Source: SAR86 cluster bacterium
GTDB taxonomy: Bacteria > Pseudomonadota > Gammaproteobacteria > Pseudomonadales > Pseudohongiellaceae
Assembly (NCBI GenBank): GCA_002746215.1
Contig: NVWI01000004.1
Location: 158,405-222,404, forward strand
Length of the DNA stretch: 64,000 bases
Reading direction: 5' to 3'
Shown here: piece after piece, positions 5,902 through 45,942 of the stretch
How the letters are laid out: each line of letters begins with the position of its first letter
Position numbering within the stretch: the stretch's first letter is position 1
The notes under the pieces: generated by a model
What the model was told of the DNA's origin: nothing
Database searches by the model: none
The model's input: only the letters and a program-made list of their open reading frames with translations
Position numbers and translations under genes: made by a program

Positions 5902-6146
5902 GTCAATGTGGATATTTCTGAAGTAAAAAGCAGGTATTCAAAAAATATAAATTTTCCTGAACCCCTTAAGTAGTTCGCTTACTAAAACTCCCCTCACACG
6001 CTGATCGGTCCAAGTTGTATGGTTTTCACACTAAATCACTAGCATCAATGTAGATTCATAGCTTATTCTATTGTTAAGCGTTACAATGCGCGCCCCCTCA
6101 GATTAGCCCTATATCTAAGGCACTTTATTTTATTTAGGCACCTTCA

Positions 6147-7907: not shown

Positions 7908-8206
7908 CAATAGCTTTCTAAAAAATATCTTACCTTTCTTCTAAAGTAGCCCATGGCCACTGGGTTAGCAGCTAGTTCAACCTCAAAATGACAGACACTT
8001 TCTTGATGAAAAGCGTGCTGCCATCATAAAACAGGGTTTTTATTTAAAATCCATCGTCTGACTTCATATGATAGTCAGACGCTACTTTGACAGTTCTGAC
8101 CATGCTATATGTATAGCACTCGAAGGAAATACTTGAAGCATTAAACCTCTATATCGTATAGTCAATACGATGTTTCCAATACTCCTCAATTATCTGATGA
8201 AATTTC

Positions 8207-9115
8207 ATGTCCTCTGAAAAAATTATCAGCACTGTCATGTTTGCTGACATTTCAGGCAGCTCCCCGCTTTATAAACAATTGGGCGACAACAAAGCTAATT
8301 TTCTTATACAAAAGCTGCTTTCTATGATGACAAATATTACTACCAAGCATCATGGCAAAGTCATCAAGACCATCGGCGATGAAGTTATGACTTGTTTTGA
8401 TAAAACTGACAGCGCTACGGAGGCTGCACGTGAAATGCAAGACTCATGCAGAAAATTTCAATCAAACATGGCACTTAAATTACGTATCGGTATCGATACG
8501 GGTGGCATTATTTGTGAACACAATGACCTCTTTGGAGAAACCGTAAATAATGCTGCCTACCTGACGGGAATTGCAAAAAGCGGGAAAATATTGCTCTCTA
8601 AAAATGCATTCAACTCCTTAAACCTTAAGGCTCAAAAATTATGTTATGAATATGACAATGTTGTTTTGAAAGGACACACGCTTAAAACAAAAATTTTCCG
8701 TATGCACTGGGAACAGAAAACAGATGAAAACTTTAACGATGCTACTGTGCATATGGGCATTCAGAGTTTTACCCGAGCAGCAAAATTAAATAGATTAGAG
8801 TTAACATATCAAAGCCAAAAATATATTCTAACAACTGATATGGAACCCTTTACTATTGGCAGAAATACTGGAATTTCTTCACTTTTTATAAGCAATTCAT
8901 TTGTATCCAGAGATCATTGCCAGATTATTTTCAGACGTGGGAAATTTATACTGTGCGATACAAGCACCAACGGTACTTACGTCACTCAAAATAATCAAAG
9001 AGAGATATATTTAAGGCGCGAAGAATTACCACTGACAGGTCAAGGTATAGTTTCTATCGGCCAATCAGTCCGGCGGGCTGGTGATGATGTGCTTGGATAT
9101 ACTTTAAAAGTATAA
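8207..9115 (+). CDS. Class III adenylate/guanylate cyclase domain fused to a C-terminal FHA domain
   Basis: The N-terminal half has cyclase motifs FADISGSS, KTIGDEVM, LRIGIDTGG and GETVNNAAY. The C-terminal part reads FTIGRN..VSRDHCQI..DTSTNGTYV, which is the FHA signature (G-R, S-R-x-H, N-G-T). Confidence 0.8.
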   Translation: MSSEKIISTVMFADISGSSPLYKQLGDNKANFLIQKLLSMMTNITTKHHGKVIKTIGDEVMTCFDKTDSATEAAREMQDSCRKFQSNMALKLRIGIDTGGIICEHNDLFGETVNNAAYLTGIAKSGKILLSKNAFNSLNLKAQKLCYEYDNVVLKGHTLKTKIFRMHWEQKTDENFNDATVHMGIQSFTRAAKLNRLELTYQSQKYILTTDMEPFTIGRNTGISSLFISNSFVSRDHCQIIFRRGKFILCDTSTNGTYVTQNNQREIYLRREELPLTGQGIVSIGQSVRRAGDDVLGYTLKV

Positions 9116-9261
9116 ACTGATAATCCGCACCCGATTAAACACAAGGTGTCAGAGTAACTTTATGCCGCAGCTCGTAGTAAACCTTATAAAAAAGTGAATA
9201 AAAATCACCATTGGCTGGATTGATGTCTACTCTTAGACTTAAAAAAAGAAGAGCCAGCACC

Positions 9262-11691: not shown

Positions 11692-11823
11692 ATCTACATA
11701 TCCACTATTTGGGAAGTCGTCGTTTTAGCGTTTTTTCTGGGCAAGGTCTAGAGAATCTATTAGTTTTAAAATGATGAGCTTTTATACAAGCTTTCCACTA
11801 AAGAAATTATTTCTACCATCAAT

Positions 11824-12279
11824 TTACTCTGACACCTTATGTTTTTGCAATATTCTGTCAAGGTGGTTCGCAAATTGTTGTCGATCATTTTGATTAAGAG
11901 GCGCCGGCCCTCCTGTGTGCTCACCACTGGCCCGCATAGTATCCATAAAATCACGCATATTTAGGCGACTTTTTATATTGCTGGAAGTATAGAGTTCTCC
12001 ACGAGGACTCAAGGCCTGTCCACCTTTTTCTATTACTTCGTCTGCTAATGGAATGTCAGAAGTAATAACCAGATCACCCTCTTGTAGCAATTTAACAATT
12101 TCATCATCTGCCACATCAAAACCTGCTTTCACTTGAATGGCATTGATATAACGAGAACCAGATACACGGATTGACTGATTCGCGACCAGGGTTAATTCCG
12201 TCTGAGTTCTTTCAGCTGCCTTAAATAAGATATCTTTGATTACTATGGGACAGGCATCTGCATCAATCCAGATTTTCAA
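11824..12279 (-). CDS. yaiI: YaiI/YqxD family protein (UPF0178)
   Basis: The motif [10 protein letters not shown] lies at the N-terminus. I place the start at a TTG overlapping the pgpA stop (TTGA), which gives the 152-aa length typical of YaiI. The ORF-track ATG at 12312 would add 11 non-conserved residues. Confidence 0.75.
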
Positions 12280-12788
12280 GCAGCAACCCCAATAGCGATT
12301 AACTGCAAACACAACCAGGCAAAGCTACCTGCAATGGCATCATCGAGCATAATTCCCAGGCCTCCGTGCACATGTTTATCAAACACATTAATCGGAAAGG
12401 GTTTCAAAATATCGAAAAGACGAAACAAAATAAAACCAATAATTATCCATTCCCAGCCGCTGGGAGCCACCAGCATGGTAATCCAGTAACCAACAAACTC
12501 ATCCCAGACTATGCCGCCATGATCATGCACACCGAGTAATTTTGAGCTACGGCCACAGATATAGATTCCCACTGCAAAAGTGACAAGTAACATCCCCAAA
12601 TAAGCTAACAGCGGCAATTGGGCTAGCAACAGATAGAGAATAACCGCAACAACAGTGCCTGCCGTACCTGGTGCTTTGGGCGATAAGCCACTACCAAAGC
12701 CGAATGCCAGGAAATGCACCGGATGAGTAAAAACCGTTTTTTTCAAGGAGGGCATGAGATGGAATTTATGCAATAACGAACAGAGCAT
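12276..12788 (-). CDS. pgpA: Phosphatidylglycerophosphatase A
   Basis: Motifs found are [26 protein letters not shown], and [10 protein letters not shown]. The start is uncertain: the ATG at 12788 overlaps the upstream desaturase gene, and an alternative ATG lies at 12755. Confidence 0.85.
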
Positions 12789-13545
12789 CCCTCATTAGTT
12801 TTTCAGGAATTTGATGTTTGATCTTTTCATGTAACGCGGGAAGTTTCGACCAATGCAAGCCTTGTTGGTAGTGATGCGCAGTGTGATAACCCAGATTGCC
12901 GGTCATCAGGTTAAAGAAGCGATTAGTATTGTTATAAGACGCTTGAAACTGATCATCCGTATCAAGACCAGCATGATGATCGTAAGTTACCCAAGCGGTA
13001 AACAGCAGGCTAATAATCATCGGCACTACAAACACTAGAAGAGCCGGAACCAGTCGGAACCAACACAGCAGGATAATGCCCAATAAGGTCAGTAGTGAAT
13101 AAAATACAAAATTGCGTTGTACTCGGGTAAATTTCTTGCCAACCTGGAATCCTCGGAAATATGCCGTAGCGGCAATTACCAGGGTGTATTTTAGAGCGCT
13201 CATTATTTTTCCGTCCTTAGACTGCCAGGCACTTTCATCGAGGGATTGATCCAGAAAATGTCTATGATGCCCGAGTACATGATGCAATACCCAGAGGTTG
13301 GTGGTCGCGCCAGTATGTAGCGCGTAGAAAAATTCAAGGATGTGATTGAGCGGTTTAGCATAAAAGGTGGGAGTATGCTGGTGATGATGATTCCAGGCAC
13401 AAATTAAGCTACGTGGAATAATCATGAGCAGCAAATAGCCGATCAGCCAGACCATATTATCGACCAGAAAATAGACGCTGAAATCGATCATACTAAATGC
13501 CAGGACAAGAAAAACCGGGAGTCTGTCAGGGGGAAATCTAAACAT
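12766..13545 (-). CDS. Membrane fatty acid desaturase family protein
   Basis: It has three histidine boxes (HHHQH, HHVLGHHRH, HTAHHYQ) and multiple TM helices. Confidence 0.7.
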   Translation of the reverse strand: MFRFPPDRLPVFLVLAFSMIDFSVYFLVDNMVWLIGYLLLMIIPRSLICAWNHHHQHTPTFYAKPLNHILEFFYALHTGATTNLWVLHHVLGHHRHFLDQSLDESAWQSKDGKIMSALKYTLVIAATAYFRGFQVGKKFTRVQRNFVFYSLLTLLGIILLCWFRLVPALLVFVVPMIISLLFTAWVTYDHHAGLDTDDQFQASYNNTNRFFNLMTGNLGYHTAHHYQQGLHWSKLPALHEKIKHQIPEKLMRDALFVIA

Positions 13546-13563
13546 AAAAAACGTGAGCCTATA

Positions 13564-13592
13564 AAATCAAGGGGTCATAAATCAAGGGGTCA
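13564..13592 (-). promoter_or_regulatory. Perfect 14-bp direct repeat (TGACCCCTTGATTT x2 on the minus strand) just upstream of the desaturase start. It is a candidate regulator-binding site.
   Basis: AAATCAAGGGGTCA occurs at 13564-13577 and again at 13579-13592, which is 19-47 nt upstream of the ATG at 13545. Confidence 0.2.
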
Positions 13593-13641
13593 GGTTGCTT
13601 GATTGCTAAATCACTCTGACACCCTCTGTTAATACTTATCA

Positions 13642-14760
13642 TCAATCCAGCCGTTTATTAAAACGCATTATAGCAATACTCAATGCTATGAAGGCGAACG
13701 CTAAAAGCGCCAGTATATCTGAACTCAAAAAATCAATCTCTGCCCCGCGCAACATTATATTTCGAATAATACGATTAAAATGCGTTAAAGGCAGTACTTC
13801 AGCTATAGCTTGAGCCGCTTTTGGCATGCCATCAAAGGGGAACATAAAACCAGAGAGCAAGATGGAAGGCAGAAAAAAGAAAAAAGTCATTTGCATTGCC
13901 TGAAACTGGGTTTGTGCTGACGTTGAAATCAATAAGCCCAGCGCGAGATTTGCTGCAATAAAGACCATGGTAGCTAGATACACATCAATTAGACTGCCTT
14001 GCACCGGCACCCTGAACAAAAACCAGCCTAATATTAAAATTAGGCTAACCTGGATAAAGCCAATTACGACATAAGGCAGTATTTTTCCTAGCATCAATTC
14101 CAGAGATTTAACCGGCGTATTGATTAAAAACTCCATATTGCCGCGCTCTTTCTCTCTTACTATAGCGACAGCTGTAAACAGCACCATTGTCATGGTTAAT
14201 ATAACGCCTATCAAACCCGGCACAATATTGACGGCTGAACGTCGCTCTGGATTATAAAAATTTCTGACCTCTAAACCGACCGAACCTTGTAATCGTCTTG
14301 TGCTGTCAAAGCTCACAGGAATATTCGCTAACTGTCGACCAACGCCAAGGATGATGGGATCAGTACCATCTACCAAAATCTGCGCTGCCGCTCTGTTGCC
14401 GCCGGCTCCGACTCTGTTTCTATCTAAAATACGCCGATCAAAATCTGGTGGTATATACAAACCAATGGAGATACTCCCTTGATCCATCAATGTAGTTAAC
14501 TCTTCAATTGTCGCGACTCGATACTGAAAATCAACAACCTGTGATGCCGTCATATCACTCACCATTTGGCGCGAAAGTGATGTATCAGCCTGGTCAACAA
14601 GCGCTGCCGTTAAATTGCGCACATCTGTATTTATTGCAAAACCAAAGAGCACTAATTGAATCAGGGGGATGCCGACGATCATGCCAAAAGTCAGCCTGTC
14701 TCTTAGTAGCTGAGTAAATTCCTTATGAAAAATAGCGTAGAGTCGCAGCAAAGATTTCAT
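13642..14760 (-). CDS. ABC-2 type transporter permease (YbhS/YbhR/YhhJ-like)
   Basis: It has an N-terminal TM helix, a large periplasmic loop and five C-terminal TM helices. Its start overlaps the stop of the upstream ATPase gene by 4 nt. Confidence 0.85.
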   Translation of the reverse strand: MKSLLRLYAIFHKEFTQLLRDRLTFGMIVGIPLIQLVLFGFAINTDVRNLTAALVDQADTSLSRQMVSDMTASQVVDFQYRVATIEELTTLMDQGSISIGLYIPPDFDRRILDRNRVGAGGNRAAAQILVDGTDPIILGVGRQLANIPVSFDSTRRLQGSVGLEVRNFYNPERRSAVNIVPGLIGVILTMTMVLFTAVAIVREKERGNMEFLINTPVKSLELMLGKILPYVVIGFIQVSLILILGWFLFRVPVQGSLIDVYLATMVFIAANLALGLLISTSAQTQFQAMQMTFFFFLPSILLSGFMFPFDGMPKAAQAIAEVLPLTHFNRIIRNIMLRGAEIDFLSSDILALLAFAFIALSIAIMRFNKRLD

Positions 14761-36257: not shown

Positions 36258-37283
36258 ATGAACCAGGCAATCAACAAATTGACGCTTAAAGACTACACCT
36301 CTGACCAGGAAGTCCGTTGGTGCCCAGGCTGTGGTGACTATGCCATTCTGAAAACCATTCAGAAACTGATGCCTGAATTTGATCAACCAAAAGAAAATCA
36401 GGTTTTTATTTCAGGCATTGGTTGCTCATCACGTTTTCCTTATTACATGAATACTTATGGTTTTCATACTATTCACGGACGAGCACCAGCAATTGCTACC
36501 GGCGTTAAACTGGCCAACCCGGAACTCGACGTGTGGGTCATAACCGGAGACGGTGATGCCTTAAGTATTGGTGGCAACCACACTTTGCACGTCTTACGTC
36601 GTAACGTAGATCTGAACATACTCTTATTCAACAATGAAATTTATGGACTGACCAAAGGGCAATATTCACCGACGTCTAAAGTCGGCACACGTTCACCCTC
36701 TACACCACAAGGTTCAATCGACTTGCCGCTTTCCCCTTGCGCCGTCGCATTAGGTTCTGGCGCTGCCTTTGTTGCCCGTTCTATTGATACCGAGATGAAA
36801 CATCTAAGCGCTGTGATAAAAATAGCTCACGCGCATAAGGGTGCATCCTTTGTCGAAATTTTACAAAACTGCCCAATCTATAACGATGGTATTTTTGAAA
36901 ACATAAAAAACAAAAAAATTGCTGCCGATTTCAGAGTTGAAATTGAACATGGTCAACCCTTGATATTTGGTAAAGAAAATACCAAAGGCATTCGACTGAA
37001 CCGAGAAACGCTGGCACTGGAAGTTGTCACTATTGGGGAGGACTGTCCCTTGGAAGATGTACTGATTCATGACCAAACCAATCTCACCTTAGCCCAGTTA
37101 ATAGGCGCAATGGGCAGCACGAATGATGAAGGTTTTCCTGTGGCAGTCGGTGTGATTTATCACAACCCTAAACCGAATTACGTTGATGACTTATTCATCC
37201 AACGTGAGCGCTTACGTCAGGACAAGGATAAGGGCAATCTGAACGCATTATTGCGCAGTGGTCATACCTGGGAAGTTGCCTGA
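36258..37283 (+). CDS. korB: 2-oxoglutarate/2-oxoacid:ferredoxin oxidoreductase beta subunit
   Basis: It has the TPP-binding motif GDGDALSIGGNH and the CPGCGD cysteine motif. It lies directly downstream of korA. Confidence 0.85.
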   Translation: MNQAINKLTLKDYTSDQEVRWCPGCGDYAILKTIQKLMPEFDQPKENQVFISGIGCSSRFPYYMNTYGFHTIHGRAPAIATGVKLANPELDVWVITGDGDALSIGGNHTLHVLRRNVDLNILLFNNEIYGLTKGQYSPTSKVGTRSPSTPQGSIDLPLSPCAVALGSGAAFVARSIDTEMKHLSAVIKIAHAHKGASFVEILQNCPIYNDGIFENIKNKKIAADFRVEIEHGQPLIFGKENTKGIRLNRETLALEVVTIGEDCPLEDVLIHDQTNLTLAQLIGAMGSTNDEGFPVAVGVIYHNPKPNYVDDLFIQRERLRQDKDKGNLNALLRSGHTWEVA

Positions 37284-37301
37284 GCACAGCCTTGAGCTGT
37301 A

Positions 37302-37377
37302 GTTGAAGTCGTTATATAAAGCTGAAGTCGTTATATAAAGCTGAAGTCGTTATATAAAGCTGAAGTAATTATATGAA
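37302..37377. repeat. 19-bp tandem repeat, four units, the last one degenerate
   Basis: G(C/T)TGAAGTCGTTATATAAA occurs at 37302, 37321 and 37340, with a degenerate unit at 37359. The array lies between the convergent 3' ends of korB and the first cluster gene. Confidence 0.9.
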
Positions 37378-37418
37378 ATTGCCTAAGCATAGGCATAGAT
37401 AGTTGTCGTTAGATCAGC

Positions 37419-38798
37419 TCATTCAAAATTTGGAATATCCATGATGGATGAAACAACCTGCAGCGCGTATTCACCCGTTTCCTCTTCAAAGTAAGACGTC
37501 ACTTGAATGTCAAAAGTGCCAAATTCAGCAGCTTCAATTTCCAGCAAGCTGTTAGACCCAAAGCCAAGACTGTCATCATCTGAAAAAAATTCTCCCGAAG
37601 GACTTTTTACGATTAAGTAAGTATCAAAATCCTCTGATTTCAGGCTTATCGTAAGAAGCTGCCCAGGCAAGGCAACTATTTCAAAGCTATCAATAAATTC
37701 ACCTGAGGCCTGTACTTCATCACCCGCTTCCAAACGGCCAATTTCGTCTAACGTGACTTCCCCCTCAAGCTCATCTTCAGTATTTATTTCAAGCGTATAA
37801 GCACCTGTCTCACCACTGCCAAAACTCGTTACCAGCACTTCATAAGCACCACTAAGCGTTAAATCCAACGACAGGCGTGAGCGATTTAAATCACCTTCAT
37901 AATCATCGTTTTCAAACTCTTCACCATTTGGAGCAATAACGATCAAGTAAGTATCAAAGTCTACTGAACGCAATTCAAACACAGTCCTTTGATTTGCAGA
38001 TCCTTCAAAAAAATAAGAATCAAGATACTTGCCTGTTTCGTCATCAACGTCGTCTTCAAATTCAAGCACGCCTCTTTCAATAATGCCGGCATTGTCCCAC
38101 GTGTCTCCGACATAAAATATCTCACCTGCGGCATATAAGGCACTGCAATCCGCGGCATCGTGCAAAGCATCCTCATCAAGTAAAGTAGTCGCTGAACCAC
38201 CCCCACCAAAACGCGGATCATCACATTCTCCATCGTTAGCCCAGTCACTTAAATCATCGCCAAAATCTATGTCTGCCAAGACTGGATCATCGTCGAATTC
38301 ATCCGCAGGCGGGATATTATCTTCTCCGACAAAATTCACACTGCCTTGATAGAGTAACGTTCTACAATCTGTTGCATCTTGCCGGACGTCATCGGCACTA
38401 GAAGCCACCGCTTCACCGTCAAAACGCGGATCATCACACTCCCCGTCTTCAGGCCAGCCGCCCTCATCATCACCAAACTCAATAGCTCTCAAAGCCAGAT
38501 TTGCTGACTCACTGGCAAGAAAGATCAAGCCTTGATCAAATAAACTGCTGCAGTCACTGGCATCGTTTTCGATACTCATTTCAACACCGATACCAGCAGA
38601 AATATTTCCCATACCTGGCCCACGGAAACGGGTATCAGAGCATTCGCCATTAACAGAAAATTCACTACTGTCATCGCCAAACATTAAAGCCGTTGTTTTT
38701 CCGCTATTAAAAGCAATAAAAAATATCAAAAAGCAAAGCGCCACCAGCAAAGCAATAGACAAGTGCTGATAAACACGCACGGCATTCATTTCACTCAC
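37419..38798 (-). CDS. Signal-anchored extracytoplasmic protein with three Cys-containing repeats and two PPC-like (pre-peptidase C-terminal-like) modules
   Basis: It has an N-terminal hydrophobic anchor (LSIALLVALCFLIFFIAF). Three repeats of about 50 aa read FGDD...W..DGECDDPRF.G...DA.DC..L. Two acidic modules contain DFDTYLIV..P.GE.F..DD. Confidence 0.7.
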   Translation of the reverse strand: MSEMNAVRVYQHLSIALLVALCFLIFFIAFNSGKTTALMFGDDSSEFSVNGECSDTRFRGPGMGNISAGIGVEMSIENDASDCSSLFDQGLIFLASESANLALRAIEFGDDEGGWPEDGECDDPRFDGEAVASSADDVRQDATDCRTLLYQGSVNFVGEDNIPPADEFDDDPVLADIDFGDDLSDWANDGECDDPRFGGGGSATTLLDEDALHDAADCSALYAAGEIFYVGDTWDNAGIIERGVLEFEDDVDDETGKYLDSYFFEGSANQRTVFELRSVDFDTYLIVIAPNGEEFENDDYEGDLNRSRLSLDLTLSGAYEVLVTSFGSGETGAYTLEINTEDELEGEVTLDEIGRLEAGDEVQASGEFIDSFEIVALPGQLLTISLKSEDFDTYLIVKSPSGEFFSDDDSLGFGSNSLLEIEAAEFGTFDIQVTSYFEEETGEYALQVVSSIMDIPNFE

Positions 38799-38852
38799 TT
38801 TAGTACCTCACTCATAACTGGCTCCCAGTACTCTTTATTACAGCGCTTTTTG

Positions 38853-41201
38853 TTAACCACTTAAATCACAAGTGAATTGAATCCCAGCAATTTCAATCCT
38901 GTCGCCCTGGTTCACAACAGTCCTGGAAAATGGCTGAACTTTATTACCATTCACTGAGGTGCCATGAGTAGAACTCAAGTCTTCCAACACAACAATTTGG
39001 CCCTCTTTACGCAAACGACAATGCCGTCGAGATACTCTGGAATCGTTAAGCACCACATGATTCAGCGTTGCTGAGCGGCCAATCACCAGGCCTTCTTTTG
39101 AACTCAGTAAGGCGTCATCCAATTCAATAGAGTTACTGGTTCCAGAACCAACTAGACGGCCAGCAACTCGGCTTCTGTTGACCGATACCTGTTGTGGGCT
39201 CACTCTGGCTTCTGGTTCTGCTGACGGCGCTGGTGTTGCAGCGGATGCTCGATATTCTGGCCCTGCTGTGCTGTATTCAGGGCGCAAGCGACTCAAGCCG
39301 AATAAAGCCAATAATACAAAGGCGAGACCAAGACCAATATAGAGCGCATTGTTATTTGCCGCCTCAGTTGTCGGAGTAGAAATTGGATCACCGGGAGTTG
39401 GCGTAGCAACCGGGCCAGATGAAGGGTCCGGTGGTGTTGGTGCCGGACTGGGTGTCGGCACAGGTGTTGGCACTGGTGTCGGGTCAGATTGAGGAATTGG
39501 CGTTGGCGTAATTACTGGCGGTGGTGTTGGAGCTTGTCGTCGCCATGCGCCAGAAATACCTACTGCATCCATCGCTTCATGCACCGCAATCCAGTTATCA
39601 GAATACTCGCCATAGAGAATTTCTGCAGCTAGAGCAAAAGCGTTTCTACCTGCCTCAAAATCGGCATAAGGCGTTAATAATTGAGATCCGGCTAAACCAA
39701 AAATGGCGGCAGCATTGGCAATGCCAATTCCCTGTACATTTGGTCCTGTACCTAATCGAGGATGTCGACCACCTTCAACCAAGATATAGAACGCCTGATT
39801 AATGATGGATGAATTTGAGTGCACGCCACCCTGGTCATTTTCGATTGGCACAGAATAAAATTGATCATAGTGATCAGGGTTATTATCAATCCTGTTAGGG
39901 TTTCTCATATCCCGTAGGGGGCCAACAGGACTGTCCATAGTCCATAAATTCGAATAAGTTGGTATAGACGAAGGGTTCTGTCCAAGTGCTCCCCCGGCTT
40001 CACGCCAGGCCTTAAATGAAACACCAATAGCATCCGCTATGCCTTCATCCATTGCACCAGATTCAAATTCATAGATAAGCCCACTGCCCGTGGAAATAAT
40101 GCCATGCGTCAGTTCATGCGCAATAACTTCAATATAGGGTATAGCGCTGGCCGGAATGTGAAGCTCATTCCAACCCGAATACCATGAAGCATTAAACGCG
40201 TCGCCTACACATTCACTCCAGCCATTTCCGGGATAGAAACGAATGCCAGAATACGCTTCTAGCGCAAGACCCTGATTATCAACACTGTCCATGTTTAAAA
40301 CGCTGGACATAAATTGATAGGCATCGCCTAGAATATTATAGAGCTGATCAACATGCCCCACTCCACTCGATGCGTCACCCTCATTTCGTGTAAACGTATC
40401 ATCTTGCTCCATCAAGTTTTGAATTTCTAATGACCTATCTGAGTCAATCGGATAGTCGACACCGACTGATCTGCACGCTGCTTCCATATCTCTTACTAAG
40501 CGCCTAAGTGCCCCTCGAGCCATCGGATATTTTGCAAGAAGCTCACCATTCACCGCATCAATATAAATATTTTCTGCCACTCCAGTGCTGGTAAATCCGT
40601 TAACTGACCAACTTAAGCGTAGATTCCCCGCATCATCTACGAAATAAACAGGCGCACTCGGCGTATCTAAACTTTCAGCGATATCAGCAATCACCCTGGC
40701 TTGTTCAAAAGAAATTTGAGAAAGAGTAGGCGCATCTGCAGTAAATCCCTGATGCTGACCAAGCAAACTTATTTGATTGCCTTGGGAATCAAGTATAAGC
40801 CTGGATTCGTATCCAACTATTGAGATGCCCTGGTGAGTTTGCTGCAACGAACGAATGTTGAAATTATTAACGGTACTACTCTGCTCAGACAGACTAAGCT
40901 CATCAGCAGGACCAAGATTGAGTTGCTGTTTTAATTCACTACCAAGCCAACTTACAATTGCCTCATCACTGGTTAGTCTTTTGCTATTTTCACCAAAGCC
41001 ATCAACAAACACAGCGTTAGCATCACTCGCACCTTCTTCAGTGCTTATAGGAGCCTCAGCGTCATTAATAAGAGCCTCAGCGTCATTAATAAGAGCCTCA
41101 GCGTCATTAATAAGAGCCTCAGCGTCATCAATAAGAGCCTCAGCGCCCATAAGAGCGCCCGATATTACTAACAGTAAGGAGCAAGCAAAAAATCTACACA
41201 T
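38853..41201 (-). CDS. Thermolysin-like M4 metalloprotease (FTP-PepSY propeptide plus M4 catalytic domains) joined by a Pro/Thr linker and one TM helix to a cytoplasmic FHA domain
   Basis: - N-terminus: signal peptide, then EALI(N/D)DA heptads
- Propeptide: FTP motif LQQTHQGISIVG and a PepSY-like block
- Catalytic domain: zinc site VIAHELTHGI plus GAMDEGIADAIG, and GGVHSNSSIINQAFY
- Linker: PTPPPVITPTPIPQSDPTPVPTPVPTPSPAPTPP
- TM helix: LYIGLGLAFVLLALFGL
- C-terminal FHA: VIGRS..VSRRHCRL..LSSTHGTSVNG. Confidence 0.8.
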   Translation of the reverse strand: MCRFFACSLLLVISGALMGAEALIDDAEALINDAEALINDAEALINDAEAPISTEEGASDANAVFVDGFGENSKRLTSDEAIVSWLGSELKQQLNLGPADELSLSEQSSTVNNFNIRSLQQTHQGISIVGYESRLILDSQGNQISLLGQHQGFTADAPTLSQISFEQARVIADIAESLDTPSAPVYFVDDAGNLRLSWSVNGFTSTGVAENIYIDAVNGELLAKYPMARGALRRLVRDMEAACRSVGVDYPIDSDRSLEIQNLMEQDDTFTRNEGDASSGVGHVDQLYNILGDAYQFMSSVLNMDSVDNQGLALEAYSGIRFYPGNGWSECVGDAFNASWYSGWNELHIPASAIPYIEVIAHELTHGIISTGSGLIYEFESGAMDEGIADAIGVSFKAWREAGGALGQNPSSIPTYSNLWTMDSPVGPLRDMRNPNRIDNNPDHYDQFYSVPIENDQGGVHSNSSIINQAFYILVEGGRHPRLGTGPNVQGIGIANAAAIFGLAGSQLLTPYADFEAGRNAFALAAEILYGEYSDNWIAVHEAMDAVGISGAWRRQAPTPPPVITPTPIPQSDPTPVPTPVPTPSPAPTPPDPSSGPVATPTPGDPISTPTTEAANNNALYIGLGLAFVLLALFGLSRLRPEYSTAGPEYRASAATPAPSAEPEARVSPQQVSVNRSRVAGRLVGSGTSNSIELDDALLSSKEGLVIGRSATLNHVVLNDSRVSRRHCRLRKEGQIVVLEDLSSTHGTSVNGNKVQPFSRTVVNQGDRIEIAGIQFTCDLSG
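41051..41152 (-). repeat. In-frame 21-bp tandem repeat (4.8 units) inside the M4-FHA gene
   Basis: GAGCCTCAGCGTCATTAATAA repeats perfectly at 41051, 41072 and 41093, with one mismatch at 41114 and a partial unit at 41135. It encodes EALINDA/EALIDDA heptads directly after the signal peptide. Confidence 0.9.
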
Positions 41202-41202
41202 C

Positions 41203-42951
41203 TTATGCCTCCCCTATATTTACTGGCAAACGCATCAGGACCGCCCCATCTTGAGCATCCAAAAATACACGCTCTTGAGCACCTTCAATGACTACTTCGA
41301 TATACCAGGCTAGATGGTAAGTACCTTCCACCTCGACAATAATTAACTGCGCCGCATCAGTTTCGGCTCTGGGACTAACGGCCATTGCCAGGCTCTGGTT
41401 TGCAAGATCCAGAGCTTGGTCAAAACTAAGTTCAGGTTCAACATTAATCTCAATATCATTGCCTGTTGAGCCGCTGATATTAAACACATTGCCATTGATC
41501 TCTACCGCAACAACTTCTGCACCGAAAACCGGAATACCAAGATGAGTCTGCTCCAGTCGAATTATGCGATTGCCATTAACCTCACCTTCTGTGCTGATGG
41601 ATAAGGCATCATTAGGACCAAGCCGATCATTTAATAACAGCATGTCTGTGATTTCCGCTATCAGCTCTTCATTGCTACTGACTTCTATAGCGGTTTCTAG
41701 TTGAATGGAATCTAGAACTCTGTCTTCTCGCACGGCCCCTTCACTATTTGTAGCCGGCGTAGTGTCCTGGGTAACAGGCAGCCCTTCCCCGCCTTCACCA
41801 TTTGCTTGATTGGCAGTGCTTTCTGCCTCCTCCAAGGTCCCATCTGCTCCCTGAGACTGATCATTATTCTCAGACTGGTTTGTATTCTGAGAACCAGCTT
41901 CCTCAGAGCCTCCAGACATAATCATTACCAGCCCCGCAAGAACAACAATCACACCGGCAATTAACAACCATTTTTTAGTAGACCCAGCATTAGAGCTAGC
42001 ATCAGAGCTGATAGTAGCGCTGGGTCTTGTTGCTTGAGAATCAGGAGAGCTAGCGGAATCCACACGGGACTCAGTAACCGCTTCTCGCTTTCCTGGATTG
42101 GTTATTGGATCTTCAACTTCTGGCATTGGCTGATGCTCATTGTCGTCTTGATTAGAATTTGTCATAAGAGAATCCTGATTACTTGCGTTTATTTCTACCA
42201 TTATTACCGTTGTGTTGTCATGTTTTGGTCGCTCTTTCATCTTTTCCAGCAAAGCAGCCTCAATTATTGCGTCTGCTTCTTTCGAATCTGTATCAAATAA
42301 TGCCAGCACCTCTTCGGTGCTGAAAATTTCCCAGAAGCCATCACTGCATACCGTAAACCGCTCCCCCTTTGCCAAATCCCAGTGGGTAATTTCAGGGTCA
42401 GGTAAATCCTGACCGCCAATATTAGAAATAACCGTGCCCTGATCTGGGTCTTCAGCTAACTCTTCTTCCGTAATTTTCCCTTGTAACACTTTCAGCTGTG
42501 CCAACGAATGATCAAAGGACTGTGCAATTTTTTGAGTATTCGAATATTGAGTGATGCGACTATCACCAGCATGAATGGATATGGCTTTGTCGTGTTCACC
42601 ATCTTTATAAAGGTAGAGCGCAGCAAGAGTTGACCGAGGTTCCAACCCATTAGCTTCTCCAACCTTATTAACCGCCAGGTGACTCTCAGAAACCAGCTTA
42701 TACAAGAAGCTTTCTACACCTTCTATATCAATACTTGCCCGTAGGAGCTGTTCTTGCCATAACGTATTTGCTGTCTCGATCACAGTCTGCGCAGCCAGCG
42801 CGCTGCCTTTATGGCCGCCCATACCATCGGCAACCACACAAAGCAGGCTTTGCTGCTCGGAATTTTGCAAAACGCTAAAACGATCCTGATTTTCTTCGCG
42901 ATGACCAATATGCGAAAAAGAAGTGATGCTGCACTTATTTTGGGAAGGCAT
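41203..42951 (-). CDS. PP2C-family Ser/Thr phosphatase joined by one TM helix to an extracytoplasmic FTP/PepSY (thermolysin-propeptide-like) module
   Basis: - N-terminal PP2C motifs: VVADGMGGHKGS, AGDSR, FTVCSDGFW, DNTTVIMV
- Ser/Thr-rich linker
- TM helix: WLLIAGVIVVLAGLVMIM
- Acidic low-complexity spacer
- C-terminal module: LEQTHLGIPVFGAEVV (FTP) and a PepSY-like block (YHLAWYIEV..VFLDAQDGAVL)
- Its stop is 1 nt from the ATG of the M4-FHA gene (TAAgATG). Confidence 0.8.
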   Translation of the reverse strand: MPSQNKCSITSFSHIGHREENQDRFSVLQNSEQQSLLCVVADGMGGHKGSALAAQTVIETANTLWQEQLLRASIDIEGVESFLYKLVSESHLAVNKVGEANGLEPRSTLAALYLYKDGEHDKAISIHAGDSRITQYSNTQKIAQSFDHSLAQLKVLQGKITEEELAEDPDQGTVISNIGGQDLPDPEITHWDLAKGERFTVCSDGFWEIFSTEEVLALFDTDSKEADAIIEAALLEKMKERPKHDNTTVIMVEINASNQDSLMTNSNQDDNEHQPMPEVEDPITNPGKREAVTESRVDSASSPDSQATRPSATISSDASSNAGSTKKWLLIAGVIVVLAGLVMIMSGGSEEAGSQNTNQSENNDQSQGADGTLEEAESTANQANGEGGEGLPVTQDTTPATNSEGAVREDRVLDSIQLETAIEVSSNEELIAEITDMLLLNDRLGPNDALSISTEGEVNGNRIIRLEQTHLGIPVFGAEVVAVEINGNVFNISGSTGNDIEINVEPELSFDQALDLANQSLAMAVSPRAETDAAQLIIVEVEGTYHLAWYIEVVIEGAQERVFLDAQDGAVLMRLPVNIGEA

Positions 42952-43134
42952 ATACTGCTTCTTTATAGCTAACCAATGGGTCTAAACCATAGCTGTTTTG
43001 ACTTTCTTGTTCAATAGGTGGAACCAGTAGAATTAATAATCTTAACTTTTCAGGGACTAAAGTTGCCTCTTTTGAAAATTATTCTATAGAATGAATCCCT
43101 GCAAGATTATTATGTGTATTAATGAGTAGTAACT

Positions 43135-43416
43135 ATGCCATCTAAAACGTCATTTAAAACCTACAGCGTTGGTCGCGGCTCAGATGTCGATATTCAGATA
43201 AGTGGTCAAAGCGTATCCAGGCACCATCTTGAACTCACCGCAACGAATGACGGTAGATACTATCTGATTGATGCCAACTCTAGCAGTGGAACCCAGATTC
43301 AACGAGGTGGAAACTGGGAATCAATCAATCAAGGCTTTGTCACTGCAAACGACACCTTATTACTCGGTAAAGAAAGCATCCAAATACAACAATTGCTCTC
43401 AAAAATGAAACATTAG
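43135..43416 (+). CDS. Stand-alone FHA-domain protein (93 aa)
   Basis: YSVGRGSDVDIQI..VSRHHLEL..SSSGTQI matches the FHA core. It is the first gene of the plus-strand operon. Confidence 0.75.
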   Translation: MPSKTSFKTYSVGRGSDVDIQISGQSVSRHHLELTATNDGRYYLIDANSSSGTQIQRGGNWESINQGFVTANDTLLLGKESIQIQQLLSKMKH

Positions 43417-43515
43417 ATAGCTGCAATAATCGTAATAGCACTAGTTAGCAGCCTAGCAGCCAATTGAGCCACATCTTAACGAACAGAAAGATTTAACAAA
43501 GGTGAATAAACCAGC

Positions 43516-44331
43516 ATGAATAATCTAGAACAACAAGAAACTAATTTTCGCATAGTCGTAGCGCTGGTTGCGTCAATCATTGCTGCGGTTTTTATTGGCG
43601 TTATGTCTCTAGTATTTTCGCCTAGCGAAGGTGCCGTTGGTCAATTAGCCATGGGCGATATTTTGTTTGATCGTTCTACCGATGTCTTCCCTTACCCGCT
43701 GACTATTCAGAATATGATGTGGTTACTATTCATGGTTGGCTTCGGCGAATTGTGGATCAGGTTTGATCGAGGCACAAAAGAAATGGCGCAATTAAAAAGA
43801 GGTTTATTGCCTGAGGATGATAGCACTATGTTGCGCGCCAAGGAGTTAGTGCCTATATTCAGTTCTGTTGTAGACAACACTAAAACCCGTTACTTTTTCT
43901 TACCACGCTTGATGCACCGTATTATTTTACAGTTTCAGAATAGCCAGTCCATCAATCAATCCAATAGCTTAATGAATTCCAGTCTGGAATTAATGCAACA
44001 TGAAATAGATTTGAAATATAATATGGTGCGTTATTTAGTCTGGTTGATCCCAACTATCGGCTTTATTGGAACTGTTATTGGTATCGCACTTTCTTTATCG
44101 GAAGCGGCAAACATGCCAGACCTGGGTCAAAGCGACGCTATCAGAGTTTGGATGGGCGTGTTAACAACCAAGTTGGGTGTTGCCTTTAACACAACCTTAT
44201 TAGCATTGGTTATGTCAGCCATCCTGGTTTTTTTCATGCACCTGGCGCAAGGTCGTGAAGAAAGCGCGCTTAACAATACTGGGCAATATTGCATGGATAA
44301 TTTAATCAACAGACTTTATGAAGAAAAATAA
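43516..44331 (+). CDS. MotA/TolQ/ExbB-family proton-channel-like membrane protein (orphan)
   Basis: It has four predicted TM helices. LIPTIGFIGTVIGI and LGVAFNTTLLALVMSAILVFF resemble the conserved last two helices of ExbB/TolQ/MotA. No ExbD/TolR/MotB-like partner lies nearby. Confidence 0.55.
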   Translation: MNNLEQQETNFRIVVALVASIIAAVFIGVMSLVFSPSEGAVGQLAMGDILFDRSTDVFPYPLTIQNMMWLLFMVGFGELWIRFDRGTKEMAQLKRGLLPEDDSTMLRAKELVPIFSSVVDNTKTRYFFLPRLMHRIILQFQNSQSINQSNSLMNSSLELMQHEIDLKYNMVRYLVWLIPTIGFIGTVIGIALSLSEAANMPDLGQSDAIRVWMGVLTTKLGVAFNTTLLALVMSAILVFFMHLAQGREESALNNTGQYCMDNLINRLYEEK

Positions 44332-45056: not shown

Positions 45057-45893
45057 ATGAGTGCTGAAGAAGCGAGCACCTTGAAAAGCCTGGTTATAGA
45101 TTCTGGCTGGGGCCAGATTATTGGCACTAGAAAATCGCAGCAAGACCATGCTGTTATTGTTAATTGGCCTACTGGTTTTGCCCTTTCAATATTAGCCGAT
45201 GGTATGGGCGGTCACGCTGGTGGAGCAGAGGCTAGCCACTTAGTCGTAGATACATTTCGACAAAGTTTTGTAGACTCGACTGAAAGCAATATTCGGCAAC
45301 GCTTTCTGGAAGGCTTATCTGCCGCTAATCTTGCAGTTTATGAACACGCTAAAAACAATCCGGAACTCGAAGGTATGGGCTCTACTTTTTTAGCAGTCAC
45401 TTTCGATGGTTCTGCTATCCAGTGGATCAGCGTCGGTGATAGCCCACTTTGGTTATTCCGTGATGGAGAAATTCGCCAAATAAATGAAAATCATTCCATG
45501 GCGGCGGTGCTGGCTAAACAAGTTGAAGAAGGGCTTATCAGCAAAGAAGAAGCTGCAAGCTCTCCTGAACGCAGCCAATTACTCGATGCCGTGTTGGGCA
45601 AAGACATCAAAATGGTTGATGCCCCCGAAGAAGCGCTACAAGTACAAAACGGTGACATTATTATTTTAGCCAGTGACGGCGTTGAAACCTGCTCACTAGA
45701 AGAGCTACAGGAATTGCTCACAAGTGAAACACAGGATGCTGCCAGCAGCGCAAAACAAATCGTTGCGAAAATTTTAACAAAGGTTGAAGAGCATCAACGC
45801 AAGTCTCAGGATAACTCTACTGTTAATGTACTGCGTATCCTCAACGACCAGGAACAAATAAATACTGTACAGAATAAGAATAGCGAAGCTTAA
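45057..45893 (+). CDS. Cytoplasmic PP2C-family Ser/Thr phosphatase
   Basis: Motifs found are ILADGMGGHAGG, GSTFLAV, VGDSPLWLFRDG, IILASDGV, and DNSTVNVL. It starts 6 nt after the preceding FHA gene. Confidence 0.85.
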   Translation: MSAEEASTLKSLVIDSGWGQIIGTRKSQQDHAVIVNWPTGFALSILADGMGGHAGGAEASHLVVDTFRQSFVDSTESNIRQRFLEGLSAANLAVYEHAKNNPELEGMGSTFLAVTFDGSAIQWISVGDSPLWLFRDGEIRQINENHSMAAVLAKQVEEGLISKEEAASSPERSQLLDAVLGKDIKMVDAPEEALQVQNGDIIILASDGVETCSLEELQELLTSETQDAASSAKQIVAKILTKVEEHQRKSQDNSTVNVLRILNDQEQINTVQNKNSEA

Positions 45894-45942
45894 GTCATAA
45901 AATAAAAAACAAGTTTTGGTTCAAATTATTGGAAATATTAAG

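Follow-up and report, generated by a model that had tools for sequence, protein, structure and literature searches.

The 64,000-nucleotide stretch of DNA that we analysed (the window) encodes a thermolysin-family (M4) metalloprotease joined through a single transmembrane (TM) helix to an FHA domain and, immediately upstream, a partner protein that joins a PP2C phosphatase to what appears to be a paralogue of the protease's own propeptide. The TAA stop of the partner gene lies 1 nt from the ATG of the M4-FHA gene, an arrangement from which we predict that the two are translationally coupled and co-transcribed. The pair suggests that Ser/Thr phospho-signalling within the cell is tied to protease activation outside it, a connection so far unstudied. 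The parts of the two genes are as follows.

38853 to 41201, minus strand: M4-TM-FHA gene, 782 aa; intact ORF, Pfam M4_C and FHA matches, orthologues
41136 to 41201, minus strand: signal peptide, residues 1-22 (MCRFFACSLLLVISGALMGAEA); hydropathy and AxA motif
41047 to 41145, minus strand: tandem repeat, 21 nt x 4.7, encoding (DAEALIN)x4; TRF score 184, 97% matches
40506 to 40979, minus strand: cis propeptide (FTP/PepSY-type fold), residues 75-232; pLDDT 84-94, Foldseek, pro-elastase alignment
39546 to 40499, minus strand: M4 catalytic domain, residues 235-552; Pfam, PDB alignment, orthologue alignment, Foldseek
39351 to 39539, minus strand: Pro/Thr stalk, residues 555-617, predicted disordered; AlphaFold2 model, composition
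39291 to 39347, minus strand: TM helix, residues 619-637; hydropathy, AlphaFold2 model
39207 to 39290, minus strand: disordered cytoplasmic juxtamembrane linker, residues 638-665; model, alignment (no conserved Thr)
38862 to 39206, minus strand: cytoplasmic FHA domain, residues 666-780; Pfam, Foldseek, invariant residues
41203 to 42951, minus strand: partner gene, 582 aa, PP2C-TM-propeptide; Pfam PP2C_2 and FTP, BLASTP, model, Foldseek
42187 to 42939, minus strand: cytoplasmic PP2C of the partner
41914 to 41979, minus strand: TM helix of the partner
41224 to 41712, minus strand: periplasmic propeptide paralogue of the partner

The M4-FHA frame starts at an ATG and contains no frameshift and no internal stop. 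Its product is ordered as signal peptide, FTP/PepSY-type propeptide, M4 domain, Pro/Thr stalk, one TM helix and cytoplasmic FHA domain, and the AlphaFold2 model (mean pLDDT 75) places the propeptide at residues 75-230, the catalytic domain at 235-550, the disordered stalk at 555-617, a helix at 618-638 and the FHA fold at 666-780. Hydropathy predicts signal-peptide cleavage between AEA and L, and all aligned orthologues have a comparable N-terminus. The single TM helix claimed in the preliminary description was found by both hydropathy and the structure model; RLRPEY follows it directly, with a Lys/Arg count of 0 before the helix and 3 after it (positive-inside). Together, sequence and model indicate a type-I inner-membrane protein, with a predicted periplasmic zymogen of the thermolysin family and a cytoplasmic FHA domain, and hydropathy predicts that it faces the periplasm from the inner membrane and is not exposed on the cell surface.

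An assembly or annotation artefact, in which a sequencing error joined a secreted M4 gene to a downstream TM-FHA gene, had been raised as a worry at the outset. We rejected it, found no support for it and now give it next to no credence, since the frame is unbroken across 39250-39560, the identical protein occurs on 3 contigs from several sources, and the conserved architecture recurs on independent contigs from different phyla, co-linear in ~65 divergent representatives. These correspond to ~65 clusters at 50% identity, and the co-linear architecture is present in 16 clusters at 90% identity; the apparent splits at two loci (L084, L085) are exceptions and lie on low-coverage contigs. Hosts are found among Acidobacteriota and Gammaproteobacteria, the latter including Halioxenophilus sp. 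WMMB6, which is in culture. Profile scores slide from ~1200 to ~330 bits among FHA-bearing proteins and stand at 300 or below for ordinary M4 proteases, so that there is no sharp gap between the two.

The active-site hallmarks proposed earlier, namely HELTH (40104-40118 in this minus-strand gene), a downstream Glu and GGVHSNS, were borne out by alignment with thermolysin, which pairs HELTH with HELTH, MDEGIADAIG with INEAISDIFG and GGVHSNS with GGVHINS (phmmer against PDB, E 1.4e-25, residues 284-549). The zinc motif H362-E363-L-T-H366 corresponds to thermolysin H142-E143-x-x-H146, and an ExxxD motif ~20 residues past HExxH supplies the third zinc ligand, E386, together with D390. H461 and D456 are the equivalents of His231 and Asp226, and N337/A338 the equivalent of the N112-A113 substrate strand. 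None of these residues varies among 13 orthologues (36-81% identity), and a Cys pair, C243/C331, is invariant as well. The equivalent of thermolysin Tyr157, Y377, is present here and lost in 2 of the 13 (P0005, P0007). Pfam matched Peptidase_M4_C at residues 373-549 (E 3.6e-34, 118.5 bits, cut-off 24.4), while the N-lobe profile scored 19.9-21.2 bits, just below its cut-off of 22.4, with no match over its first 48 positions; the N-terminal beta-sheet portion of this lobe is shortened. Foldseek matched the domain to thermolysin and gentlyase (E ~1e-17, TM 0.7). By these comparisons the M4 domain is catalytically complete and a predicted protease.

The FTP and PepSY blocks of the propeptide stood at the level of fold and PDB alignment but not in Pfam, where PepSY (E 0.005) and FTP (E 0.23) both fell under their cut-offs. 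Foldseek matched the propeptide chains of vibriolysin MCP-02 (3nqz_A, 3nqy_A; E ~2e-6, TM 0.6), and a phmmer alignment to pro-elastase in PDB covers residues 93-476. Thermolysin, vibriolysin MCP-02 and LasB are likewise built from a signal peptide, an FTP/PepSY-type propeptide and a two-lobed catalytic domain, and HExxH, ExxxD, the Asp226/His231 equivalents and the NAxW substrate strand are common to M4-FHA and the secreted enzymes (TM ~0.7). M4 proteases are normally released from the cell. Here, in contrast, stalk, TM helix and FHA domain stand where PPC (pre-peptidase C-terminal) or other secretion-related C-terminal domains usually are; the beta-sheet of the N-lobe is shorter; a PPC-bearing protein has a gene of its own, downstream of M4-FHA; and a second propeptide is supplied by a separate, phosphatase-bearing protein.

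The stalk is indeed rich in Pro and Thr (23 and 12 residues, respectively), although at 63 residues it is longer than the ~50 first estimated. The juxtamembrane segment was described as Ser/Thr-rich, and only the Ser half of this holds: residues 639-700, from the TM helix to the FHA core, are rich in Ser, Ala and Pro and contain just 3 Thr, none conserved. The FHA assignment itself is significant (PF00498, residues 706-771, E 3.5e-18, 66.2 bits, cut-off 20.7), and, with the fold defined as an 11-stranded beta-sandwich, Foldseek matched the FHA domains of DgcB, EmbR and FhaA (TM 0.8, rmsd about 2 A). G708, R709, S724, R725, R726 and H727 are invariant in 13 orthologues; G708-R709 corresponds to the Gly-Arg of Rad53 (R70) and S724-R-R-H727 to its Ser-x-x-His (S85/H88), which are predicted pThr contacts. 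The domain is not canonical throughout, however, since the Asn of the S-(T/S)-N-G loop (Rad53 N107) is replaced in a loop that reads STHGT (H746). Orthologues carry H, Y, K or Q at this position, and two paralogues at the Bryobacterales locus (L005) carry G or V, whereas the other TM-FHA protein of the cluster retains SANGT. Given this replacement, pThr recognition could be weakened or altered. Since its own linker lacks a conserved Thr, the FHA domain probably recognises a pThr site in trans.

The partner gene does not appear in the preliminary description. Its PP2C_2 match (PF13672) reaches 53.7 bits (cut-off 24), the metal ligands D23, D42-G43, D204-G205 and D245-N246 (motifs I, II, VIII and XI) are invariant in 22 homologues, and Foldseek matched the domain to Stp1 and PstP (TM ~0.85). 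The predicted topology mirrors that of M4-FHA, with PP2C in the cytoplasm and the propeptide in the periplasm. The partner propeptide aligns with the cis propeptide over ~166 aa (BLASTP, 27% identity, E 2e-14), matches Pfam FTP (E 3.4e-7 in the full protein, 1.3e-7 for the ectodomain alone), and is modelled with its secondary-structure elements in the same order (pLDDT 85-94). Alignment and model thus agree in indicating that the partner ectodomain is a true paralogue of the protease propeptide.

This adjacency recurs in Gammaproteobacteria (L002-L004 and the Halioxenophilus locus L083), in Acidobacteriota (L005, Bryobacterales) and at further metagenomic loci; the sole examined locus with M4-FHA and no PP2C partner, L001, has IS elements on either side of the gene. 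Fusion of the two proteins into a single polypeptide, PP2C-TM-propeptide-M4-TM-FHA, occurs in three independent lineages (P0185, P0188, P0193), and P0188 and P0193 each fill exactly the two-gene slot on their contigs. The single propeptide of the fusion is of the PP2C-partner type in P0185 and P0188 and of the cis type in P0193, which suggests that either paralogue can serve in cis on the M4 protease.

Downstream of M4-FHA lies a third operon gene, and a divergent core cluster begins on the other side of the pair.

37419 to 38798, minus strand: third operon gene, with N-terminal TM, three 'DGECDDPRF' repeats and two PPC domains (Pfam PPC)
43135 to 43416, plus strand: small FHA protein, 93 aa, first gene of the divergent core cluster; position conserved
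43516 to 44331, plus strand: MotA/ExbB-like membrane protein, 271 aa
44358 to 45050, plus strand: FHA protein, 230 aa, disordered N-terminus
45057 to 45893, plus strand: soluble PP2C phosphatase, 278 aa
45916 to 47871, plus strand: signal peptide, Cys-rich domain, trypsin-like pseudo-protease, coiled coil, TM and FHA, 651 aa
47874 to 48743, plus strand: vWA protein, 289 aa, N-terminal anchor
48820 to 50787, plus strand: Hanks-type Ser/Thr kinase, TM and periplasmic FGE-sulfatase-like domain, 655 aa
50808 to 51803, plus strand: secreted protein, 331 aa, two copies of a Cys-rich domain

Next to the pair are thus encoded a Hanks kinase, another PP2C and three further FHA proteins. The pseudo-protease of the 651-aa protein has lost its catalytic His and Ser, and the Cys-rich domain of the secreted protein also heads this protein. 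Hydropathy gives the TM anchor of the vWA protein an N-in orientation, which would put its vWA domain in the periplasm, and no MotB/ExbD-type partner for the MotA/ExbB-like protein is evident among the cluster ORFs. The third operon gene is confined to close relatives (tblastn matches in L003, L004 and L088 only). In clusters without M4, the same slot is predicted to encode a PP2C and an apparently active trypsin-like protease-TM-FHA protein, and P0084 is one fusion with Trypsin_2, PP2C and FHA domains. Gene content across loci identifies the M4-FHA/PP2C pair as an optional accessory module of a widespread Hanks kinase, PP2C, FHA, vWA and MotA-like cluster. The earlier idea that the protease is coupled to kinase/phosphatase state gains independent support from the coupled PP2C gene, the adjacency of the pair at other loci, the fusions in three lineages and the kinase/FHA neighbourhood.

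These features also bear on whether M4-FHA is a nutritional protease that is retained at the cell surface and breaks down peptides for uptake, with FHA as a passive anchor or localisation tag and no signalling role. M4 enzymes are typically degradative, the nearest relatives come from marine oligotroph-type MAGs, where cell-bound hydrolases would be economical, and the FHA domain lacks the canonical Asn. We nevertheless consider this very improbable, given the predicted periplasmic orientation, the invariant pThr-contacting Arg, Ser and His, the embedding in a kinase/phosphatase/FHA cluster, a PP2C linkage kept in nearly all examined loci with fusions that arose independently several times, and the serine protease-TM-FHA proteins that replace it in M4-less clusters.

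Our preferred reading, to which we give even chances, is that the propeptide-protease pair acts as a periplasmic switch, with FHA as its address and PP2C as the eraser. The kinase would create pThr sites in its own chain or in partner proteins, and FHA would dock the protease subunit onto them. In the periplasm, the partner's propeptide domain would grip the M4 catalytic domain, and this binding would carry the phosphatase to the FHA-bound phospho-complex, which it would reset. Breaking the contact would both free periplasmic proteolysis and uncouple the phosphatase, after which the cytoplasmic phospho-signal would persist; the contact might be broken as the zymogen matures, as the activated protease degrades the propeptide, or by a competing substrate. 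According to an excerpt from PMC6490944, citing Kessler & Safrin 1994, M4 propeptides are chaperones that remain bound as inhibitors once cleaved. Counting against such a switch, M4-FHA keeps its own cis propeptide, and the model does not explain why a second one should be needed in trans; the partner ectodomain may rather serve as a substrate or decoy, or bind something else. The replaced FHA Asn, the loss of Y377 in two orthologues, the shortened N-lobe and the partnerless L001 are further points against it.

Alternatively, the same domain and neighbourhood facts could describe an inside-out effector, in which the protease is the output and kinase-made pThr, through FHA docking or clustering, triggers trans-maturation of the zymogen. 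Its periplasmic targets might include the vWA, Cys-rich secreted or PPC proteins or envelope components, and the PP2C partner would merely end the response and hold the protease in its inhibited state until the need arises. The cluster encodes several predicted periplasmic proteins that are possible substrates, and variants with two or three FHA domains (P0211, P0212, P0215) suggest multivalent docking or assembly. However, no substrate is identifiable, and this reading, which we regard as rather unlikely, leaves unexplained why a phosphatase, and not any membrane anchor, is joined to the propeptide. A lone TM helix between disordered linkers would pass clustering rather than conformational signals. 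This is as compatible with inward as with outward signalling, and sequence does not tell the two apart.

Parallels to the periplasmic switch exist in part. Actinobacterial PknB/PstP/FhaA/FhaB(FipA) likewise combines a Hanks kinase whose sensor domain is extracytoplasmic, a PP2C that is anchored in the membrane and has a domain outside the cell (PstP, also a fold match) and an FHA protein anchored by a TM segment (residues 637-771 match the FhaB/FipA model, E 3e-12, below cut-off). The extracytoplasmic parts here are protease and propeptide, however, not PASTA or unknown domains, and the cluster is not beside rodA/pbpA-type cell-wall genes; since all NCBIfam scores are far below equivalog cut-offs, these proteins are not orthologues of that module. 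As described in an excerpt from PMC6490944, RhpP/RhpC of Pseudomonas savastanoi also comprises an M4 protease that is not released into the medium, is regulatory and not nutritional, and relies on a dedicated co-encoded partner, but RhpP is without signal peptide and classical propeptide, and that excerpt mentions no TM, FHA or PP2C. Among stand-alone propeptide-like inhibitors, a subtilisin propeptide-like protein of Plasmodium inhibits SUB1 (excerpt from PMC6993865), which is the role that we propose for the partner ectodomain, that of a separately encoded paralogue acting in trans; it belongs, however, to the subtilase clan and not M4, and is soluble, untethered and unfused to a signalling enzyme.

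The T6SS PpkA/PppA/Fha1 pathway also has a periplasm-facing Hanks kinase, a PP2C eraser (PppA, a Foldseek match to the partner PP2C) and FHA-dependent assembly on pThr, although its vWA domain is part of the kinase and here is a separate protein. We rejected this pathway, since the TagH/VI_FHA model TIGR03354 scored 27 bits against a cut-off of 120 and Pfam and NCBIfam detected no T6SS components among 11 cluster proteins.

We also considered a device for envelope surveillance or conflict (anti-phage, anti-predator), with a logic akin to the TerY-P triad and, in its MotA-like sensor, to Zorya; tethered periplasmic proteases would be sensors or effectors against invading particles. Anantharaman et al. 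2012 reportedly described the triad as vWA, PP2C and Ser/Thr kinase. It is mentioned in an excerpt from PMC10542128, and the same three kinds of protein are co-encoded here. The MotA-like protein weakly matches ZorA (E 1.9e-6, 89/505 profile positions), a PP2C matches the candidate-defence model PDC-M21C (E 6e-18), module content differs between genomes, and several related loci adjoin integrases, transposases, a GmrSD-type restriction enzyme, HipA or reverse transcriptase. In the window, however, the cluster has housekeeping genes for neighbours (2-oxoglutarate:ferredoxin oxidoreductase, dxs, ispA), the PADLOC matches concern generic catalytic domains, and ZorB, ZorC, ZorD, a nuclease and any other abortive-infection effector are all missing. 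The vWA protein, unlike TerY, is N-terminally anchored and predicted periplasmic, FHA, MotA-like and protease-TM-FHA components are additional to the triad, and no tellurite-resistance genes were found among 11 cluster genes. We therefore think a conflict device quite unlikely; Zorya (ZorABCD) itself was rejected, since the ZorA match is weak and partial and none of 10 cluster proteins matched ZorB, ZorC or ZorD.

More tentatively, and with more doubt than confidence, we suggest that the pair, its fusions and the serine-protease counterpart may form a class of trans-envelope switch not recognised before, in which zymogen-propeptide engagement of a membrane-tethered periplasmic protease is the sensory event. 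If so, engagement would physically couple the phosphatase to, or uncouple it from, an FHA-addressed Hanks-kinase complex, and in the fused forms autoprocessing would sever the phosphatase from the FHA-bearing protease, an irreversible, proteolysis-gated phospho-switch. With the MotA-like and vWA components, such a switch might guard the envelope against phage, predators or wall damage. The earlier statement that no M4-FHA fusion had been characterised agrees with a full-text search of open-access PMC and bioRxiv, in which no paper combined 'FHA domain' with thermolysin or PepSY. The sequences are already in databases, where they go by 'hypothetical', 'FHA domain-containing protein' or 'neutral peptidase B'. 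Finally, the (DAEALIN)x4 repeat sits right behind the signal peptide and is an insertion in P0001 only, the aligned orthologues being without it.

The M4-TM-FHA protein had been described, from the DNA sequence, as a thermolysin-family (M4) protease tethered through one transmembrane (TM) helix to a cytoplasmic FHA domain. It is encoded with two neighbors on the minus strand, and its gene contains a short repeat:

37419..38798, minus strand: membrane-anchored PPC protein (two PPC domains, 'W..DGECDDPRF' repeated three times); lineage-specific
38853..41201, minus strand: M4-TM-FHA protein, 782 aa, encoded in one ATG-started frame
41047-41145, minus strand: tandem repeat (21-nt unit x 4.7, 97% matches), encoding DAEALIN x4 directly past the signal-peptide cleavage site
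41203..42951, minus strand: PP2C-TM-propeptide partner, upstream of the M4-TM-FHA gene and ending 1 nt before its start codon

The reading frame, Pfam, alignment to PDB sequences, a structural model, Foldseek, and predicted topology all confirm the M4-TM-FHA architecture. Peptidase_M4_C (residues 373-549, E 3.6e-34) and FHA (residues 706-771, E 3.5e-18) both scored far over their curated Pfam cut-offs, so the FHA profile match is significant, and an artifactual fusion or frameshift is ruled out because the frame runs without a break and many other sequences share the architecture. When we searched PDB sequences with phmmer, thermolysin aligned to residues 284-549 (E 1.4e-25), pairing HELTH, MDEGIADAIG, and GGVHSNS with its own HELTH, INEAISDIFG, and GGVHINS, and pro-elastase aligned to residues 93-476, covering both propeptide and catalytic domain. 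Across an alignment of 13 family members, all M4 catalytic residues were invariant, as were the FHA Gly-Arg and Ser-Arg-Arg-His; the full catalytic set reported for the ectodomain is thus present. The cysteines C243 and C331 were invariant in the same alignment, and a disulfide between them would fit an oxidizing periplasm.

We built an AlphaFold2 model from 13 orthologues (mean pLDDT 75) and verified the coordinates of every part through translation. The model shows three folded modules, namely the propeptide (75-230), the catalytic domain (235-550), and an FHA sandwich (666-780). Between the last two run a disordered Pro/Thr stalk (555-617), one helix (618-638), and a further disordered linker. 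Foldseek recognized each module on its own: the catalytic domain resembles those of thermolysin and of gentlyase (E about 1e-17, TM 0.7), the propeptide resembles the chains cleaved from vibriolysin MCP-02 as its propeptide (E 2e-6, TM 0.6), and the FHA module resembles the FHA domains of DgcB, FhaA, and EmbR (TM 0.8). Hydropathy and charge predict a signal peptide at residues 1-22, with the protease outside and the FHA domain inside; there are no Lys or Arg residues in the 15 positions before the TM segment and three after it. By sequence and fold, the ectodomain passes as a family M4 protease, the exceptions being Pfam scores under the cut-off for the N-lobe (slightly) and the propeptide. 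The FTP and PepSY blocks named in the preliminary description were therefore sub-threshold as Pfam matches, although Foldseek and the pro-elastase alignment uphold a propeptide fold. The tail likewise passes as an FHA domain, but it is not fully canonical, since His replaces the loop Asn. The stalk is 63 aa rather than about 50. The juxtamembrane segment had been called Ser/Thr-rich, but from the TM helix to the FHA core (639-700) the abundant residues are Ser, Ala, and Pro; the orthologue alignment revealed no conserved Thr in this linker that could act as an FHA self-ligand. The DAEALIN repeat was absent from all 12 aligned orthologues, which marks it as a recent, possibly length-variable insertion.

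The key point of the locus is the partner gene, which the preliminary description had missed. Pfam recognizes a PP2C phosphatase domain in its product (E 2.6e-14) and matches FTP to the C-terminal domain (E 3.4e-7), with a single TM helix between the two; the charge distribution predicts a cytoplasmic phosphatase and a periplasmic C-terminal domain. BLASTP identified the latter as a full-length paralogue of the M4-TM-FHA protein's own (cis) propeptide (27% identity, E 2e-14), and it was modeled at pLDDT 85-94 with strands and helices in the same order. The phosphatase metal ligands were invariant across 22 homologues, and the PP2C fold matched Stp1, PstP, and PppA in Foldseek. The best 50 Foldseek matches to the partner model were all to PP2C, with none to the ectodomain, so the propeptide identity of this domain rests on BLASTP, the Pfam FTP match, and secondary structure. 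Given the domain order and predicted topology, the operon encodes two mirror-image membrane proteins, one predicted to place a phosphatase inside and a propeptide outside and the other a protease with its own propeptide outside and a phosphothreonine (pThr) reader inside. A promoter and terminator scan of 37200-43600 was uninformative, returning fewer promoter-like sites than shuffled sequence.

The two genes travel together. The partner lies directly upstream of the M4-TM-FHA gene in L002, L003, L004, L005, L083 (Halioxenophilus), L084, and L085, and in most M4-bearing metagenomic loci among L088-L114, with its propeptide region undetected in L091 and L102. Among the loci examined, it was missing solely at L001, where IS elements abut the M4-FHA gene. 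In three mutually divergent proteins of 1028-1128 aa (P0185, P0188, and P0193), both genes are joined into a single PP2C-TM-propeptide-M4-stalk-TM-FHA chain, and the two fusions located on contigs (P0188 and P0193) fill exactly the slot of the two separate genes. The sole propeptide is of the partner type in P0185 (112 vs 40 bits) and P0188 (65.5 vs 45) and of the cis type in P0193 (64.7 vs 32.3), so either paralogue can be the covalent propeptide of the M4 protease. Of the available evidence, this argues most strongly that the M4 domain is engaged by the partner's ectodomain.

How might such a pair work? M4 propeptides are described in PMC6490944, citing Kessler & Safrin 1994, as folding chaperones that stay bound as inhibitors after cleavage. 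We propose that the FHA domain would dock the protease subunit onto pThr sites produced by the cluster kinase, while the partner's propeptide domain would grip the M4 domain in the periplasm and thereby deliver PP2C to the same complex. If this grip were lost, whether to maturation, to degradation of the propeptide, or to competition, the protease would be freed and the phosphatase uncoupled, so that phosphorylation would persist; in the fused forms, autoprocessing itself would cut the phosphatase from the FHA-bearing protease. We give this scheme as a whole an even chance of being correct. Its main rival runs in the reverse direction, with phosphorylation-driven FHA clustering triggering protease maturation and the protease as the output, and we consider it unlikely. 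The earlier interpretation, which linked kinase and phosphatase state to the protease across the membrane, is supported and extended by the partner, the fusions, and the surrounding kinase, phosphatase, and FHA genes.

We also assessed how widespread the family is. An identical protein (COA71_02715, 'hypothetical protein' / 'FHA domain-containing protein') was already deposited from a 'SAR86 cluster bacterium' MAG, and the same Pfam architecture occurred in 15 more clusters at 90% identity, as low as 35% identical to the query. A 100% identical copy of the partner (P0042) is labeled 'Haliea sp. AH-315-K21' in NCBI, making the taxonomic label of the source MAG inconsistent. The word-indexed profile search added no further M4-FHA members, a null result that reflects its sensitivity limit; exhaustive HMMER and neighborhood look-ups overturned the 16-cluster figure, and we do not claim extreme rarity. 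The exhaustive search, against 1.84 billion representatives, placed about 65 clusters (50% identity) above 330 bits, most extending to the FHA end of the profile, with ordinary M4 enzymes at or below 300 bits; by Pfam, M4_C and FHA were both present in 9/9 sampled members, and the first protein below the score break lacked FHA. A GTDB scan contributed at least three full-length genomic relatives (L003, L004, and L005). Members are encoded, among others, by uncultured marine Gammaproteobacteria, by a Bryobacterales genome (Acidobacteriota) whose chromosome is complete, and by a cultured bacterium, Halioxenophilus sp. WMMB6 (GCA_033283405.1), which makes genetics and biochemistry feasible. P0211, P0212, and P0215 carry two or three tandem FHA domains past the TM helix, a sign that pThr docking may be multivalent.

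Divergent from the operon is a core cluster:

from 43135, plus strand: small FHA protein
43516-44331, plus strand: MotA/ExbB-like protein
following, plus strand: FHA protein, then soluble PP2C
45916-47871, plus strand: trypsin-like-coiled-coil-TM-FHA protein, catalytic His (TNAAL) and Ser (GEYGAAL) replaced
47874-48743, plus strand: anchored vWA protein
48820-50787, plus strand: Hanks kinase, one TM helix, periplasmic FGE-sulfatase-like domain (E 7.8e-46)
50808-51803, plus strand: secreted Cys-rich repeat protein, 331 aa

This core and the M4 pair also occur jointly in distant loci. The cluster is abundant in marine metagenomes, where a scan found at least 447 relatives of the MotA-like protein, so the biology may be ecologically widespread. 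Among the matches listed, the M4 pair was present in 7 of the 20 loci with ample flanks and absent from 13, making it an accessory module. In the M4-less loci L142 and L150, the equivalent slot holds a partner-type PP2C and a signal peptide-trypsin-like protease-TM-FHA protein in which the His motif (TNxHV) and the Ser motif (GNSGGPL) are both intact and the long coiled coil is lacking, and P0084 combines Trypsin_2, PP2C, and FHA domains in one chain. The trypsin-like-TM-FHA protein of the window and other M4-bearing loci has lost the catalytic His and Ser and is thus a pseudo-protease. Judged from these domain orders, the recurring design is a predicted periplasmic protease-TM-cytoplasmic FHA protein beside a PP2C, with the protease class interchangeable. 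The repeated fusions and the serine protease in the same slot make the arrangement look selected, not accidental.

Could the whole cluster be a conflict or defense system? A vWA, PP2C, and kinase triad is present, the MotA-like protein weakly and partially matches the Zorya protein ZorA (E 1.9e-6), and several related clusters adjoin transposases, tyrosine integrases, a reverse transcriptase, ArdC, a GmrSD-type restriction enzyme, or a HipA toxin (L001 5153-9191 and 15379-16710; L084 14370-21476; L086 17015-19520; L087 808-1789), a hint that genomic islands may carry the cluster in some lineages. However, in the window it is flanked by the housekeeping genes korAB, dxs, and ispA, and PADLOC matched no known defense model, returning generic kinase and PP2C matches and the weak ZorA match. 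Membership in a known defense system is therefore unsupported, and we regard a defense role as unlikely.

Within the core, the MotA-like protein is highly conserved across all related clusters (83 invariant positions in seven sequences), and no MotB/ExbD-type partner was evident among the cluster ORFs. The vWA domain is predicted to be periplasmic from charge bias; its N-terminal anchor, MKIRSREVNIFSMSALDLFASALGAFMILTVVALPFFPNTGDSP, is nearly identical in Bryobacterales L005 (6795-7658) despite 46% overall identity, suggesting a specific intramembrane contact. The kinase ectodomain is replaced in related loci by PEGA, Sel1, YARHG, or WD-like repeats, or none. The secreted protein has two copies of a roughly 140-aa Cys-containing domain that lacks a Pfam match and is also conserved in L002 and L004; a further copy lies at the N terminus of the pseudo-trypsin-FHA protein (46010-46450, plus strand). 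The 10 cluster proteins tested against NCBIfam all stayed below the cut-offs of its equivalog models. In L005, two M4-TM-FHA paralogues (3-2330, 7890-9404, and 9437-12103 for these and the PP2C gene) and three near-identical TM-anchored kinases (3078-4502, 5497-6624, and 12745-13920) surround one PP2C-TM-propeptide gene, a local amplification of the module.

In their logic, two known systems come closest: the actinobacterial PknB/PstP/FhaA/FipA module and the T6SS PpkA/PppA/Fha1 pathway. Among M4 enzymes that are not secreted, act in regulation, and depend on a dedicated partner, RhpP/RhpC, as portrayed in PMC6490944, is the nearest precedent, and subtilases have stand-alone propeptide-like inhibitors (PMC6993865). 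None of these four links FHA and PP2C across a membrane to a protease-propeptide pair. Full-text searches of open-access PMC and bioRxiv found no paper pairing 'FHA domain' with thermolysin or PepSY, and searches for the architecture or the cluster turned up general kinase, FHA, or vWA papers and no description of either, in line with the earlier remark that no M4-FHA fusion had been characterized. The domains are known; the architecture, propeptide-bearing phosphatase partner, fusions, and protease-class swapping are undescribed in the searched papers.

To our knowledge, how Hanks kinases sense the cell exterior is understood in very few cases, mainly that of PASTA domains and muropeptides. 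M4 proteases are usually viewed as secreted degradative enzymes or virulence factors, and the chemistry of protease-propeptide binding and cleavage is well understood. Hard-wiring protease and propeptide across the membrane to a reader (FHA) and an eraser (PP2C) of Ser/Thr phosphorylation would offer a concrete, testable route from periplasmic proteolysis to cytoplasmic phospho-signaling, and would add membrane-tethered signaling to the roles of M4 proteases.

The third operon gene, encoding the PPC protein, is confined to the close relatives L003, L004, and L088. PPC is the usual C-terminal extension of secreted M4 proteases (vibriolysins) and other proteases, and thus the modules found in one classical vibriolysin precursor are spread over the three operon proteins, each of which has its own membrane tether.
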